From Escherichia coli (GTDB lineage: Bacteria > Pseudomonadota > Gammaproteobacteria > Enterobacterales > Enterobacteriaceae): DNA of 64,000 nucleotides. The stretch lies in the NCBI RefSeq assembly GCF_016026235.1, contig NZ_CP065613.1; one strand, written 5' to 3'. Positions 2,421 to 60,849 of this stretch are shown here, piece by piece. Each line of letters begins with the position of its first letter. The first letter of the stretch is position 1. Both the position numbers and the translations under genes were made by a program. The notes beneath the pieces were generated by a model. That model saw nothing but the letters and a program-made list of their open reading frames with translations, ran no database searches and had not been told where the DNA came from.

Positions 2421-3561
2421 GGGTCGGTTTCTCGTTAATAAAATCCAGGGCTTCCGGCACCGGAAGATGAGTAGGTTGTACAGGGCGCTGTCCACCAGCC
2501 AGACGCCAGCGTTTCAGTTGCCAGACCTAGGCCAGCACTTCCGCCACCGCGGCGTACAGTTGACCCGGGATTTGTTGACCAATCTCCGCATGTCGATACA
2601 GCGCTCGCGCCAGCGGCGGCGCTTCAAGCGTCGGGACGTTATTTTCAGCGCCAATTTCACGAATGCGCAGCGCGACCAGCCCTGCACCTTTAGCGACCAC
2701 TTTCGGTGCGCTCATTTTGTTTTCGTCATACTGCAACGCTACCGAATAGTGGGTCGGGTTATTGACAATGACATCCGCTTTCGGCACATCGGCCATCATC
2801 CGACGCCGTGCAGCCGCTCGCTGCATCTGACGGATCCGCCCTTTAACATGGGGGTCGCCTTCGCTTTGTTTGAACTCATCACGAATATCCTGCCGCGACA
2901 TACGCAGCTTTTTCAGGTGGCTGAAGATTTGGAAAAAGACGTCAAATCCCACCATTGGAATGACACCAAGCACCACCAGCAGTGCGCATAGCCCTACCAG
3001 ATCCATCGCATTACCCATGGCGGTAATCGGAGACTCGGCCATTAAGCGCATCATCTGCGGCCAGTGATGCCAGAGAAAAAACCCCGTCACGCTGCCAACC
3101 AGGATGGTTTTCAAAATTGCTTTAAGTAACTCCGCGCCAGTCTGTGCCGAGAACATCCGTTTAATGCCCGGTAGCGGGTTGAGTTTGGAAAACTTCGGCT
3201 GCAAGGATTTGCCGCTAAATACCAGCCCTCCCAGCATGACCGGAGAAATGAGCGCCACCAGCACCACGCAGCTAATCAGCGGTAGCAGCGCCAGCATGGC
3301 TTCTCTGATCAGCAGAATAAACTGCCCGAGGATCAGATTCGGGTCATTGATAATACTGTGATCAAAATGCAGCCCAGCGGAGAGCATGCCCGACAATCGA
3401 CGGGCCAGGGACACACCGCCAAACCAGATAACACACACGCCCACCAGCAAAATCAGCAGTGAAGTCAGTTCACGGGAACGTGGGATTTGCCCCTCTTCCC
3501 GCGCTTTTTCTAGTCGGTGAGGTGTGGGGGCTTCTGTTTTGTCGTCGCTCTCGTCAGACAC
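2413..3561 (-). pseudogene. flhB: FlhB flagellar export switch protein with premature amber codon (TAG at 2527-2529); encodes 344 aa instead of ~382
   Basis: ORF 2527..3561 matches FlhB to ...AVAEVLA then TAG. The same frame continues after the stop (VWQLKRWRLAGGQRPVQPTHLPVPEALDFINEKPTHE*) to the expected stop overlapping the flhA start, so this is a point nonsense change, not the native end. Confidence 0.8.
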
Positions 3562-3796
3562 GTCGCCAATCCTGGAAAGAGTATTAAGCGTAAATGATGC
3601 CAGAGCGCAAAGCGTTCAATGGTTTGAGTAAGGGGCAAAACCGGCGGGATTTAGGACGTTTATGCAAAAATAGGTTCAGTTGCAGAACGTTTTGCGAACC
3701 ATTTTCCAGTTCTGATATTTAGCCATTTAGCCTATAGAATCGCCCACCGCCTCTCTGTTAGTTTGCTAATAATTAAATTATTACAAAGGTGATCAA

Positions 3797-5305
3797 ATGG
3801 AATGGCAACAATTGCTTAACTGCAACCGTCGGAAAGATAATCTAAAAAAAACCAACATAGCATTTTTACATCCCCTTGCTAGCGGAAGACAAGAGATCGA
3901 ACGGGATTACGACCGATTACTTTTTGCTGCGCCAACTCGTCGCCTTGCGGATAAAACACAAGTTTTCCCGTTAGATCAAAATGACAGCATACGGACGAGA
4001 CTGACTCATTCTCACGAAGTAGCAAACTTTGCTCGCGGAATAGGAATGAGACTCGCTTTCGAGATGAAGGAGCACATCTTTGGCGAAATACCCACGGGGA
4101 TTGTCGTTGAACGCGACGTTCCTGCTCTGTTAGCAGCGATCGGACTGGCACACGATCTCGGTAATCCACCATTTGGGCATCAAGGTGAAGCAGCGATGCG
4201 CGCATGGTTTAATAAAAATCTTCCAGGTCTTCTTGATAAAGAAGTAAACAGCGAAATATATAACGACTTTCTGCAATTTGATGGAAACTCACAAACCCTG
4301 CGCCTGGTTACCAAATTACAAATTATTAACGATAACTTTGGTCTGAATTTGACCTATGCCACGCTGGCTGCACTGATCAAATATCCCCGAGCTTCATATT
4401 CATCGGACAAACATTGGAAAAAGCACGGTTTTTTCTATTCTGAGCATGAGGTTGTCATGGATGTCTGGCAGCAAACGGGCCTTGGCGTACCAGGTAATGA
4501 TGCCGGTTGCCGCCACCCATTTACCTGGATAATGGAAGCTTGCGACGATATTGCCTACTCTGTGCTTGACGCAGAAGATACCATCAAGAAAGGATTTGCC
4601 TCATACCAGGATTTGCGTGATTTTTTGATGTCACAATCCGGGGCGAACGATGTAATTGAAAATGTTATTAAAGCTGTAGAGGCCAAAAATGACGCCTGGA
4701 AAGAGCAAAGAAATGCACTTTCACCGGCAGAAATTAATGAACTCAGTATGCAAATGTTCAGAGTGTATGCCACCAGTGCATTGATTAATGCCGTAGTAGA
4801 AGCCTTTCGCGAACAATTACCCACGCTGATGCAGCGTGACTGCCCGTTCAAAGATTTAATCTCGCAAAGCAAAGGTCACGCCCTCTGCACTGCCCTGAAA
4901 ATGTTCGACCGAACACGAGGCTACCTTCATCGTTCAGTCTTGCAACTGGAACTTAGGGGGTCTAATTACATTACTAACTTGATGGATATGCTCTGGATTG
5001 GCATCCATGGACACAAAACAAAGAAAGAACGAGACGGAGAACGCGAGTCCGCGTCTGCAGATAACCTTTTTGTTTCTCGTGAAGAATACCTGTCGGATAC
5101 TCCCTTTGGTCGCTATGCTTACGGGACAATATCTGAAAATTATCGCCGTGTGTTTGAAGATCCCGCCAATACACTCCCTGTTCTTTATAAAGAAGCGCAG
5201 TTGCTTACCGACGCAATCTCAGGCATGACGGATAGTTATTTAATGCGCCTTCACGATGAGCTAAAATCACTGTATGAATGTGGTCTCAAACACCCAACAG
5301 CTTGA
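3797..5305 (+). CDS. Dgt-family dGTP triphosphohydrolase-like HD-domain protein (502 aa)
   Basis: Motifs RTRLTHSHEVANF, LAHDLGNPPFGHQGE, FDGNSQTLRLV and FTWIMEACDDIAYSVLD align with conserved blocks of E. coli Dgt (recalled). RBS AAGGTGA 7 nt upstream of ATG. AT-rich relative to flanking che/flh genes. Confidence 0.8.
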   Translation: MEWQQLLNCNRRKDNLKKTNIAFLHPLASGRQEIERDYDRLLFAAPTRRLADKTQVFPLDQNDSIRTRLTHSHEVANFARGIGMRLAFEMKEHIFGEIPTGIVVERDVPALLAAIGLAHDLGNPPFGHQGEAAMRAWFNKNLPGLLDKEVNSEIYNDFLQFDGNSQTLRLVTKLQIINDNFGLNLTYATLAALIKYPRASYSSDKHWKKHGFFYSEHEVVMDVWQQTGLGVPGNDAGCRHPFTWIMEACDDIAYSVLDAEDTIKKGFASYQDLRDFLMSQSGANDVIENVIKAVEAKNDAWKEQRNALSPAEINELSMQMFRVYATSALINAVVEAFREQLPTLMQRDCPFKDLISQSKGHALCTALKMFDRTRGYLHRSVLQLELRGSNYITNLMDMLWIGIHGHKTKKERDGERESASADNLFVSREEYLSDTPFGRYAYGTISENYRRVFEDPANTLPVLYKEAQLLTDAISGMTDSYLMRLHDELKSLYECGLKHPTA

Positions 5306-6026
5306 ACAGCGTATCGCCGATTTTTTTACGCTTAGTGATGAGCATAAGAAAGCCAGAGTATTACTTGATACTCTGGCCTGTTCCTGTCCGGCCTGGATTT
5401 TTGGCGGGATGGTGCGTGACTTAGGCTTGTTTGGCGTCGAAGGATTCTCTTCAGACCTTGATATCGTCATCGGTCGCTCGCGTGAGGAACTCTTCCAGAC
5501 ATTGGCTGAACTGCCCGTCAAACAACTGCGTTTTAATAAGTTTGGTGGGATCCGTTTTCGTTATCACGACTTCGAATTTGATATCTGGAACCTCAATGAG
5601 ACATGGGCATTTCGGGAAAAACTTATATTTTGTGAGGATGAATCAAGTCTGTTAAACACTACGCTAATGAGTTGGGATGCCGTGCTCTATGATCTACGTA
5701 GTGAAAAAATTATCAGTAAAGATAATTATTTGACCGATTTAAATCGCAGACATCTTGAACTTGTTCTTCATACTAACCCCAATCCAAGCGGTTCGGTAAC
5801 GAAGATTTTACGCACTATTTTTACTAAGCAGGTAAAGAGTTTAGGGCCGGAACTCTGTCATTTCTTGCACCATGAACTGACGAAAAAACGTTATGAAGTA
5901 TGGCATCACTACGATGTACTGCACTACCAATCATCGTCATTTTCTCGTTCACAATTTAATGCATTGATAAATTTACTGGCGCAACAATCACGCTTCGCTG
6001 ATCTAAAATTATCAAACTACAAATAA
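5274..6026 (+). CDS. Minimal nucleotidyltransferase, CCA-adding enzyme / poly(A) polymerase head-domain type (250 aa)
   Basis: WIFGGMVRDLGLFGVEGFSSDLDIVIG matches the GGxVRDxLLG...DxD head motif of class II tRNA nucleotidyltransferases/PcnB. Start overlaps the upstream dGTPase-like ORF by 32 nt; exact start codon uncertain. Confidence 0.6.
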   Translation: MNVVSNTQQLEQRIADFFTLSDEHKKARVLLDTLACSCPAWIFGGMVRDLGLFGVEGFSSDLDIVIGRSREELFQTLAELPVKQLRFNKFGGIRFRYHDFEFDIWNLNETWAFREKLIFCEDESSLLNTTLMSWDAVLYDLRSEKIISKDNYLTDLNRRHLELVLHTNPNPSGSVTKILRTIFTKQVKSLGPELCHFLHHELTKKRYEVWHHYDVLHYQSSSFSRSQFNALINLLAQQSRFADLKLSNYK

Positions 6027-6113
6027 CCATCCTCCACGTACTCCCTGAACGAAACCCGCCACCCTGCTATCGGCCTGGCATCATCGCGCAGGCCGAAGTT
6101 CAGGCAATACAAA

Positions 6114-6768: not shown

Positions 6769-8222
<1,454 letters not shown>

Positions 8223-12443: not shown

Positions 12444-12470
12444 TTATCGGCAAGAAGGGGGGAAACTTTA
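12444..12470 (-). promoter_or_regulatory. Sigma-28 (FliA) class III promoter of tar-tap-cheRBYZ
   Basis: Minus strand reads TAAAGTTT-N11-GCCGATAA, a perfect FliA consensus, about 30 nt upstream of the tar ATG. Confidence 0.85.
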
Positions 12471-12498
12471 TTGCTGATGCCACCCGCCGCGAAATTGA

Positions 12499-12530
12499 AA
12501 TAAAAAACCCGATGCGCAGATCATCGGGTT
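12499..12530 (-). terminator. Rho-independent terminator after cheW (end of motAB-cheAW operon)
   Basis: GC-rich hairpin AACCCGATG...CATCGGGTT followed on the minus strand by a T-run. Confidence 0.7.
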
Positions 12531-12556
12531 CATTTCAATTGAGGAAATCGGGAGAA

Positions 12557-60481: not shown

Positions 60482-60601
60482 AAAAAAACCACCCGGAGGT
60501 GGTTTCACGACACTGCTTATTGCTTTGATTATTCTTGTCTTTCCCATGGTACCCGGAGCGGGACTTGAACCCGCACAGCGCGAACGCCGAGGGATTTTAA
60601 A
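60482..60601. repeat. Right direct repeat of the island (leuZ 3' part plus downstream terminator hairpin)
   Basis: About 95% identical to 32003..32114. Confidence 0.85.
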
Positions 60602-60633
60602 TCCCTTGTGTCTACCGATTCCACCATCCGGGC
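60547..60633 (-). tRNA. leuZ: tRNA-Leu (anticodon UAA)
   Basis: Reverse complement reads GCCCGGATGGTGGAATCGGTAGACACAAGGGATTTAAAATCCCTCGGCGTTCGCGCTGTGCGGGTTCAAGTCCCGCTCCGGGTACCA. Confidence 0.95.
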
Positions 60634-60645
60634 TCGGGAAGAAAA

Positions 60646-60719
60646 TGGAGGCGCGTTCCGGAGTCGAACCGGACTAGACGGATTTGCAATCCGCTACATA
60701 ACCGCTTTGTTAACGCGCC
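60646..60719 (-). tRNA. cysT: tRNA-Cys (anticodon GCA)
   Basis: Reverse complement reads GGCGCGTTAACAAAGCGGTTATGTAGCGGATTGCAAATCCGTCTAGTCCGGTTCGACTCCGGAACGCGCCTCCA. Confidence 0.95.
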
Positions 60720-60773
60720 AAATTCTTCAGGCCTTTCAGCCAGACATCCGCTTGACGCCGATGTCTTTTAAAC

Positions 60774-60849
<76 letters not shown>

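Follow-up and report, generated by a model that had tools for sequence, protein, structure and literature searches.

Stand-alone anti-phage dGTPases were reportedly described by Tal et al. in 2022, and Nicastro et al. are said to have been the first, in 2023, to note a dGTPase gene paired with a nucleotidyltransferase (NTase) gene. The biology of Clover, a system built on such a pair, was already described in 2025; the source for its mechanism is a preprint (Yamaguchi et al., bioRxiv 2025, PMC12265719), and a literature search found no later Clover or p3diT papers beyond it. The hosts studied were Salmonella enterica SA20044414, E. coli H5, and Xanthomonas oryzae, and the experimentally tested CloB proteins were IMG 2897288306, 2719124845, and 8060537493 (PMC12265719). 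In all three hosts, CloB makes p3diT (5'-triphosphothymidyl-3'5'-thymidine) from dTTP, even though the Xanthomonas CloB is distant, and p3diT restrains CloA, a dTTP-activated dGTPase (PMC12265719). The Salmonella and E. coli H5 operons protect against T5-like phages, and in both operons a catalytically dead CloB is toxic (PMC12265719). Salmonella CloA forms an octameric "four-leaf" assembly, in which H263 pi-stacks between dimers (PMC12265719).

Two groups of defense systems invite comparison. Stand-alone anti-phage dGTPases (SpdGTPase; "dGTPase" in PADLOC) are, like CloA, HD effectors that deprive the phage of dGTP, but SpdGTPase is constitutively active, hexameric, and devoid of an NTase partner, unlike CloA (PMC12265719). 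Hailong (oligodeoxyadenylate) and Panoptes/MISS (2'3'-c-di-AMP) have been named as functional analogues (PMC12265719) and follow the same logic as Clover: an NTase constitutively produces a nucleotide that keeps the effector inactive, and this block is lifted upon infection.

Here we describe the gene structure, operon conservation, CloA homology, ligand-pocket conservation, CloB fold, and island boundaries of a two-gene locus in E. coli. All positions refer to the analyzed stretch of contig NZ_CP065613.1, 64,000 nt in length (the window). The open reading frame (ORF) at 5274-6026 is very probably cloB, the regulatory NTase of the Clover anti-phage system, and the gene upstream, annotated as dgt, would then be cloA.

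Results

The ORF at 5274-6026 (+) starts with ATG and encodes 250 aa; its translation includes NLNETWAFREKLIFCEDESSLLNTTLMSWDAVLYDLRSEKIISKDNYLTDLNRRHLELVLHTNP. The same 753-bp coding sequence is annotated by RefSeq in E. coli SMS-3-5 as a "hypothetical protein" (WP_001103661.1). It is a real gene and not a chance ORF, since the identical protein is found on 629 contigs, full-length homologs with 36-73% identity are present in other enterobacteria, and an exhaustive HMM search collected a CloB family of 1,490 cluster representatives. The initial annotation called the start codon ambiguous. The ATG at 5274 does overlap the upstream gene, and the sequence 5' of cloB (gagctaaaatcactgtATG) shows no strong Shine-Dalgarno element, but the ambiguity is minimal: because the frame opens just 3 codons 5' of this ATG, GTG 5280 is the sole alternative start. 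The overlap of cloA and cloB spans 32 nt (5274-5305, +) read in two frames, and translation of the two genes is probably coupled. In homologous operons, alignment of the junctions shows that an overlap of 17-47 nt is kept; at one of these loci (L016), the dGTPase and NTase genes do not overlap.

The upstream gene, cloA (3797-5305, +; "dgt" in RefSeq), encodes a protein of 502 aa with an HD domain and a C-terminal helical bundle, which is expected to be a dTTP-activated, p3diT-inhibited dGTP triphosphohydrolase. A phmmer search matched it to PDB entries 9p8s-9p8v, cryo-EM structures of octameric Salmonella CloA, with E = 2.8e-189 and 65% identity; these eight-chain entries (9p8s/t/u/v) are titled "DNTP triphosphohydrolase" and are assigned to Salmonella CloA by the data statement of the preprint (PMC12265719). 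The match to housekeeping E. coli Dgt (4x9e), at 2e-38, is far weaker than that to Salmonella CloA (3e-189), and SpdGTPase from Shewanella (PDB 9p8w) matches at 2e-24. Among curated models, the PADLOC dGTPase model matches CloA at 1e-70 and NCBIfam dGTP_triPase scores above its cutoff, while NCBIfam antiphage_dGTPase falls below it (183 vs 400 bits).

Conservation extends to individual residues. All six catalytic residues (H71, H119, D120, H128, E131, and D250) are identical to those of Salmonella CloA; the HD motif H119-D120 (4151-4156, +), read from the sequence, maps to H117/D118 of that protein. In a global alignment, the dTTP pocket is identical at 9 of 9 positions, with R49, D63, Q175, K264, S446, N448, A473, T478, and Y481 aligning to R47, D61, Q172, K256, S418, N420, A444, T449, and Y452 of Salmonella CloA (PMC12265719). 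The p3diT pocket of the Salmonella protein comprises T25, R29, R34, D37, R38, F41, N75, N181, Q311, and R314 (PMC12265719), of which nine are kept in the window CloA as R31, R36, D39, R40, F43, N77, N184, Q319, and R322; the exception is T25, replaced by L27. Thus, both pockets known from Clover CloA are present. Two further differences set the window protein apart from Salmonella CloA: an insertion of ~20 residues near residue 410, in the C-terminal bundle, and Q271 at the position of H263, the inter-dimer stacking residue of the octamer.

CloB aligns to P0050, the NTase encoded after Salmonella-type CloA, with 36% identity over 249 residues (99% of length; E = 6e-57). Its homology to a tested CloB rests on this proxy ortholog and not on the sequences used in the preprint: the upstream neighbor of P0050 is ~85% identical to Salmonella CloA and collinear with it, and the catalytic aspartates of P0050 are D71/D73, the numbering mutated in the preprint, where their substitution with alanine abolished p3diT synthesis (PMC12265719). 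These residues correspond to D61/D63 of the window CloB, whose N terminus is 10 residues shorter than that of the Salmonella-type protein. As in Clover, where CloB is a Pol-beta NTase of ~250-276 aa encoded directly 3' of the CloA dGTPase, the window NTase gene follows the dGTPase gene and its product carries a DxD...D active site. The preprint lists the E. coli H5 Clover operon at 2,200 bp (PMC12265719); the window operon, measured from the start codon of cloA through the stop codon of cloB, is 2,230 bp long and may therefore differ from the allele tested. A variant of 2,200 bp, encoding proteins of 492 and 250 aa, was found in a metagenome contig (L008), whose CheB is only 94% identical to that of E. 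coli; no complete E. coli genome carries this variant.

A dGTPase-family gene lies directly 5' of the CloB-family NTase gene in all 10 distinct neighborhoods examined for this family of ~1,500 representatives; the sample included E. coli, Enterobacter, Atlantibacter, two further enterobacteria, and three remote metagenomic members. The same-strand order of cloA (3797-5305) and cloB (5274-6026) in the window is thus repeated in 9 other neighborhoods, and one of the two further enterobacteria carries the pair twice, once with an NTase of 250 aa and once with one of 276 aa. The functional tie to the adjacent HD protein suggested in the initial annotation is borne out by this arrangement.

The pair resides on an island of 2,444 bp (3656-6099), the Clover island, in the flhB-cheZ spacer, where it replaces a 93-bp REP-like stretch of E. 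coli K-12. The window is E. coli chromosome, and in a blastn search of the K-12 spacer against it, homology stops at 3655 and resumes at 6100. The GC content is 39-47% in the island versus 52-57% in the flanks. Of 5,426 complete E. coli genomes, 106 (~2%) carry the island intact; IS elements have degraded it in Shigella and in a single Enterobacter, and the Salmonella-type copy neighbors type I R-M and DarTG genes; together, these features give the locus an accessory, defense-like character. Repeat, terminator, and Rfam scans of the island gave nothing beyond chance: direct repeats do not flank it, cloB is not followed by a plus-strand terminator, and no RNA family matched. A candidate sigma-70 promoter of the cloAB operon (CTGATA-17-TAGAAT; 3712-3740, +) is the sole plus-strand sigma-70 match upstream of cloA; it is a consensus match only and counts as weak evidence, because such matches are no commoner in the region than in shuffles.

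The RefSeq names, "dgt: dGTP triphosphohydrolase" and "hypothetical protein," would suggest an additional housekeeping dgt paralog with an unrelated gene behind it, the two having no shared role. We regard this as the least probable of the readings considered here, with next to no chance of being correct: the genes are linked in 10 of 10 sampled neighborhoods and usually overlap, they are accessory, being carried by ~2% of E. coli on a low-GC island, and the product of the first is much closer to Salmonella CloA than to E. coli Dgt.

By its motifs and predicted fold, CloB is a compact class II-type NTase composed of an N-terminal helical hairpin, a head, and a neck, and is a putative p3diT synthase. 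The first part of motif A, G44-G45-M-V-R48-D49 (5403-5420, +), is equivalent to the GGxVRD of class II NTases and is invariant or almost so throughout the family; its counterpart in E. coli Cca is GGAVRD, and it also falls within the alignment to PolyA_pol model positions 1-63. The catalytic carboxylates D61-L-D63 (5454-5462, +), which follow S60, are invariant in 43 diverse homologs, and the third, D103 (5580-5582, +), lies in an F-D-I-W sequence and is likewise invariant in the family; across the 43 CloB-family sequences, which show 22-41% identity, G44, G45, and R48 are also without exception. The published active-site logo of CloB, [D/E]h[D/E]...h[D/E]h (PMC12265719), is present as D61-L-D63 and F-D103-I. 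Two other motifs of class II CCA enzymes are missing. In both hhalign runs, T129-T130-L131 (5658-5666, +) occupies the position of motif B (RRD), so that the arginines that sense the ribose 2'-OH are lost. For motif D (EDxxR), residues 166-181 (HTNPNPSGSVTKILRT) contain no E-D pair, whichever of the two registers is used; the two runs differ by 3 residues here, and our claim is limited to the absence of this pair.

No curated model recognizes CloB (Pfam, NCBIfam, and PADLOC 2023). Pfam matched only the PolyA_pol head, at residues 40-104, with i-E = 0.066, which places CloB below the threshold of PF01743, unlike class II CCA/PcnB enzymes; when 32 CloB-family members were scanned separately, none matched PolyA_pol at E <= 0.001. 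NCBIfam yielded a sub-threshold pcnB fragment alone (11.8 bits vs a cutoff of 305), and PADLOC returned no match.

The predicted model of CloB consists of a 38-residue N-terminal helical hairpin, an extra element relative to class II CCA/PcnB enzymes, followed by the head and a helical neck domain (residues ~150-240), and ends after five neck helices. The folds nearest to it are those of class II CCA-adding enzymes and poly(A) polymerase (PDB 3h37, 1miv, 3aql, 4wby, and 9kma). Only 187-206 CloB residues align to these targets of 344-517 aa, and an alignment of 202 residues covers head and neck. The CloB-family profile retrieved from the PDB copy searched only PAP/CCA heads at E ~0.08 and no solved CloB structure, and CloB does not have the cGAS/DncV-like fold of the CD-NTase (CBASS) family. 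Judged from the model, CloB combines a head of the class II CCA-adding/poly(A)-polymerase type with a neck and lacks both body and tail. The assignment to Pol-beta-type NTases in the initial annotation agrees with these nearest relatives, and the motif that it placed near the N terminus is recovered within the first ~105 residues. Its description of the protein as "head-only" does not hold, given the helical neck: the C-terminal half lacks an assignable motif at the level of sequence (Pfam, PADLOC) but is assignable at the level of fold. A complete canonical CCA-enzyme body does not appear in the prediction.

One alternative is that CloB is a stripped-down enzyme of the CCA-adding, tRNA-repair, or poly(A) type, working on the 3' ends of RNA and relying on the HD protein for substrate recognition. 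The pair would then be a two-protein counterpart of E. coli Cca, itself annotated as an NTase-HD fusion. The nearest folds and the weak PolyA_pol and pcnB matches point in this direction, yet we consider it highly improbable. Class II CCA/PcnB enzymes (PF01743) share with CloB the head fold with GGxVRD...DxD, but hold tRNA or RNA with a body and tail, both of which are absent from CloB at 250 aa. CCA addition by CloB is unlikely because CloB has T-T-L in place of RRD, the ribose 2'-OH sensor, and no EDxxR, the base template; this loss fits a free deoxynucleotide substrate, not tRNA. The HD partner, in turn, is not a Cca-type phosphohydrolase but a dGTPase-family homolog of CloA with both nucleotide pockets intact, and the family product has been determined as p3diT, made from free dTTP and not on an RNA 3' end (PMC12265719).

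Discussion

If the window operon works like the Salmonella, E. coli H5, and Xanthomonas systems, for which the mechanism has been established (PMC12265719), p3diT synthesis and defense activity would proceed as follows. In an uninfected cell, CloB would join two molecules of dTTP, the 3'-OH of one attacking the alpha-phosphate of the other, and the two-metal site formed by D61/D63/D103 would release p3diT and PPi. p3diT would occupy a basic pocket located where two CloA subunits meet in the dimer (R31, R36, R40, D39, F43, N77, N184, Q319, R322), so that more dTTP is needed to activate CloA and the dGTPase does not harm its own cell. T5-like phages, by means of the enzymes Dmp and NrdAB, would increase dTTP, which would then fill the adjacent activating pocket of CloA (R49, D63, Q175, K264, S446, N448, T478, Y481), and active CloA would hydrolyze dGTP, stalling phage DNA replication. 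The initial annotation proposed either that the NTase depends on the HD protein for substrate recognition or that it uses a non-tRNA substrate. The second proposal is in line with the synthesis of p3diT from dTTP in this family (PMC12265719), whereas the dependence is probably reversed, with the NTase product allosterically inhibiting the dGTPase CloA.

A Clover-like pair might still operate differently, with this CloB lineage making another nucleotide signal, or with CloB binding CloA directly in the manner of a classical antitoxin and not via p3diT. CloB is just 36% identical to the Salmonella-type protein, one p3diT contact is changed and CloA bears an insertion, and the 32-nt overlap would favor stoichiometric co-expression. 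However, the window CloA keeps 9 of 10 p3diT contacts, among them D39, N77, and Q319, which read the base, and p3diT is still the product of the distant Xanthomonas enzyme (PMC12265719). The toxicity of catalytically dead CloB (PMC12265719) indicates that catalysis, and not the mere presence of the protein, protects the cell, which counts against an antitoxin. We therefore give these possibilities little credence and favor p3diT as the signal of the window operon.

As to the origin of CloB, one speculation, to which we assign a small chance, is that it is a pared-down head and neck of a class II CCA-adding enzyme, re-tooled so that free dTTP serves in two roles, primer and donor. The RRD ribose sensor would have given way to the invariant T130, EDxxR would have been lost, and an N-terminal hairpin would have been gained whose near-invariant R13 could hold the acceptor triphosphate. 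An immune-signal synthase would then have arisen from the tRNA-maturation NTase lineage and not from cGAS/CD-NTase, the lineage to which the preprint likens CloB (PMC12265719). A bolder variant is conceivable, in which the E. coli CloB lineage, being merely 36% identical to the Salmonella type, makes an additional or different product. T129/T130, N88, W105, W111, and R13 are concrete CloB residues for probing deoxythymidine selection.

Clover exemplifies immune control through opposing nucleotide signals, a discovery that has already been made. For the genomes that carry it, the present assignment means that the pair labeled "dgt" and "hypothetical protein" in ~2% of complete E. coli and in many Enterobacter and Cronobacter can be named cloA/cloB, and that the flhB-cheZ spacer is a recurrent site of diverged Clover operons in several enterobacterial genera.

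Identity of the upstream gene

The HD gene upstream of the NTase ORF (positions 3797 to 5305, + strand) matched four eight-chain "DNTP triphosphohydrolase" entries, 9p8s, 9p8t, 9p8u, and 9p8v, at an E value of 2.8e-189 in a phmmer search of the PDB, versus only 2e-38 for housekeeping E. coli Dgt and 2e-24 for the stand-alone defence dGTPase 9p8w. The four entries belong to the description of the Clover defence system (Yamaguchi et al., bioRxiv 2025, PMC12265719), where the codes are printed as 8P9S to 8P9V; 9P8W agrees as printed. On sequence grounds, we identify the upstream gene as cloA. Its product is 65% identical to Salmonella CloA, the sequence of which was recovered from the PDB alignment.

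Pocket and catalytic residues named in the preprint (PMC12265719) were transferred through the alignment of the window and Salmonella proteins. All six metal/HD/HE catalytic residues (H71, H119, D120, H128, E131, and D250) and all nine contacts to the activator dTTP (R49, D63, Q175, K264, S446, N448, A473, T478, and Y481) are kept, as are 9 of the 10 contacts to the inhibitor p3diT (R31, R36, D39, R40, F43, N77, N184, Q319, and R322), the remaining one, T25, being L27 in the window. The window protein differs from Salmonella CloA by a charged insertion of ~20 residues near residue 410 (HKTKKERDGERESASADNLFVSREEYLS; residues ~406 to 433, window 5012 to 5095), by Q271 in place of H263, an inter-dimer pi-stack residue, and by D455 in place of Q427. 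Given the insertion and Q271, the oligomeric state of window CloA could differ from that of the Salmonella protein.

The NTase as a CloB family member

The ORF at 5274 to 6026 (+; 753 bp, 250 aa) stands as initially annotated; counted from the ATG at 5274, its first 32 nt are shared with the end of cloA. Its start had been called ambiguous; since the frame is open for just three codons upstream, the choice narrows to ATG 5274 or GTG 5280, and these two candidates remain. A start codon at this position is kept in homologous operons, with overlaps of 17 to 47 nt and a single exception, locus L016, which has no overlap.

PADLOC returned zero matches for the NTase, Pfam found the PolyA_pol head only (E = 0.066), and NCBIfam found a pcnB fragment (E = 0.077). 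A word-indexed search recovered 52 full-length relatives at 28 to 99% identity (Enterobacter, Cronobacter, Pseudescherichia, Atlantibacter, and metagenomes), and an exhaustive profile search recovered 1,490 representatives at 50% clustering, the best 150 of which are mostly 245 to 325 aa long. The suspected tie to the HD neighbor was confirmed: a dGTPase-family gene lies directly upstream in every neighborhood opened, namely, in Enterobacter hormaechei, again between flhB and cheZ, in two other enterobacteria adjoining cheZ (one with two loci, encoding NTases of 250 and 276 aa), in Atlantibacter hermannii inside a defence island, and in three remote metagenomic members, where it was confirmed by NCBIfam.

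The Atlantibacter operon is of the Salmonella type: its CloA aligns collinearly with Salmonella CloA from the PDB at about 85% identity. In its 276-aa NTase, P0050, the catalytic aspartates are D71 and D73, the positions that the preprint mutated (PMC12265719), and P0050 aligns with the window NTase end to end (36% identity, E = 6e-57). Compared in this way, through P0050 rather than the preprint's own CloBs, the window ORF is assigned by sequence to the CloB family. Across 43 sequences 22 to 41% identical to window CloB, the catalytic triad (D61, D63, and D103) and G44, G45, R48, N88, G92, W105, W111, and T130 are invariant. The operon spans 2,230 bp, versus 2,200 bp quoted for E. coli H5 (PMC12265719), and may therefore be a different allele from the one tested there. 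For the dead CloB mutant, the preprint's text has D71A/D73A and its Figure 3 legend D61A/D63A; this second numbering belongs to the 250-aa E. coli-type CloB found in the window.

Fold of the C-terminal half

An AlphaFold2 model of CloB built from a 32-sequence alignment (mean pLDDT 92, pTM 0.88) comprises an N-terminal helical hairpin (residues 7 to 37), an alpha/beta head (about 39 to 150), and five helices (152 to 237). The "head-only" description was therefore mistaken, as the C-terminal half is modeled as a neck domain; the predicted absence of a tRNA-binding body holds, with body and tail both missing from the model. Profile alignment with E. coli Cca, the class II CCA-adding enzyme, is weak (E = 0.023 and 0.0027) and agrees with the fold match: GGMVRD...DLD of CloB aligns onto GGAVRD...DRD of Cca. 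In both runs T129-T130-L131 falls on the motif B RRD, and neither has an E-D pair at the EDxxR position, where the register differs by three residues between runs. Class II CCA enzymes use RRD to sense the 2'-OH of the ribose and EDxxR to template the base. With both motifs lost, the suggested non-tRNA substrate is plausible, and we infer that the loss is as expected for a dTTP-using enzyme. The preprint makes no mention of a CCA-type fold ("CCA" has 0 occurrences; PMC12265719).

Proposed mechanism

By homology to the published system, CloB would join two dTTP molecules into p3diT, which would occupy a basic pocket at the CloA dimer interface and raise the dTTP activation threshold. The reported EC50 for dTTP is ~15 µM without p3diT, and >200 µM dTTP is required with 20 µM p3diT (PMC12265719). 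T5-like phages would push dTTP up via Dmp and NrdAB, and the raised dTTP would switch CloA on, leading to dGTP hydrolysis and failure of phage replication. Inactivating the CloB catalytic site is reported to make both the Salmonella and the E. coli H5 operon toxic (PMC12265719), because CloA is then left without restraint. The initial annotation had the NTase depending on the HD protein; by the same homology the direction would be reversed, the NTase product acting on the HD enzyme. The best local support for the same circuit operating here, as it most likely does, comes from window CloA, which retains both pockets.

Insertion site and decay

On this stretch of E. coli chromosome, the pair lies between flhA (342 to 2495, -) and flhB (2527 to 3561, -) on one side and cheZ, cheY, cheB, cheR, tap, and tar, in that order and all on the - strand, on the other. 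Homology to E. coli K-12 ends at 3655 and restarts at 6100; between these points, 2,444 bp (39 to 47% GC, versus 52 to 57% outside) replace a 93-bp REP-like palindromic spacer (K-12 locus L014, 1787 to 1879; …TGTCGGATGCGGCGTCATCGCCTTATCAGACC…). Intact pairs occur in 106 of 5,426 complete E. coli genomes, all at flhB-cheZ, and remnants occur in nine more. The pair forms an accessory island; neither flanking direct repeats nor an integrase was found in the window. Elsewhere in the window, Rfam places the C0465 sRNA next to tar (12460 to 12537, +) and a three-tRNA cluster near the far end (60550 to 60849, -).

Diverged Clover operons occupy the flhB-cheZ spacer or adjoin cheZ in E. coli, E. hormaechei, and two other enterobacteria (window 3656 to 6099; L006, 4590 to 6753; L011, 3566 to 5765; metagenome contig L008, 3554 to 5753). 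Their CloB proteins are only 50 to 68% identical, versus 94 to 95% for CheB in two pairs (L008 and L011 against the window), which suggests either a hotspot of repeated insertion or defence genes that evolve very fast. Window CheB (7173 to 8222) reads VDDLALMRQ versus VDDSALMRQ in both related loci, an S12L difference immediately following the acidic receiver-domain residues D10 and D11.

In Enterobacter (L005, GCA_013731155.1, 3365 to 6753), an IS3-family transposase splits cloA into 396-aa and 87-aa pieces beside an intact 250-aa cloB ORF; loss of cloA first fits CloA as the toxic partner. In two Shigella flexneri loci (L020 and L021, 5001 to 5162), cloB is reduced to a 53-aa C-terminal remnant adjoining cheZ, with IS elements in place of cloA and, in L020, of flhB; many "partial" CloB fragments of the 90% cluster are S. 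flexneri contig ends. The Atlantibacter island (L002/L003, 1 to 12831) sets its Salmonella-type operon among genes for a type I restriction R subunit, a YgjP/SprT-like protease, Macro and DarT (DarTG), an Ogg-HhH/methyltransferase pair, and a PfkB-nucleoside deoxyribosyltransferase/QueC cluster.

A July 2025 preprint described the Clover system together with its signal and mechanism, included a representative from E. coli, and catalogued more than 650 homologues (PMC12265719). The window locus is therefore already known, though public annotation says otherwise: in strain SMS-3-5, RefSeq lists the same cloB CDS as "hypothetical protein" (WP_001103661.1), directly after "dgt". What our analysis adds is modest: the CCA-lineage fold predicted for CloB, from which two motifs have been lost, and the apparent recurrence of insertion at flhB-cheZ.
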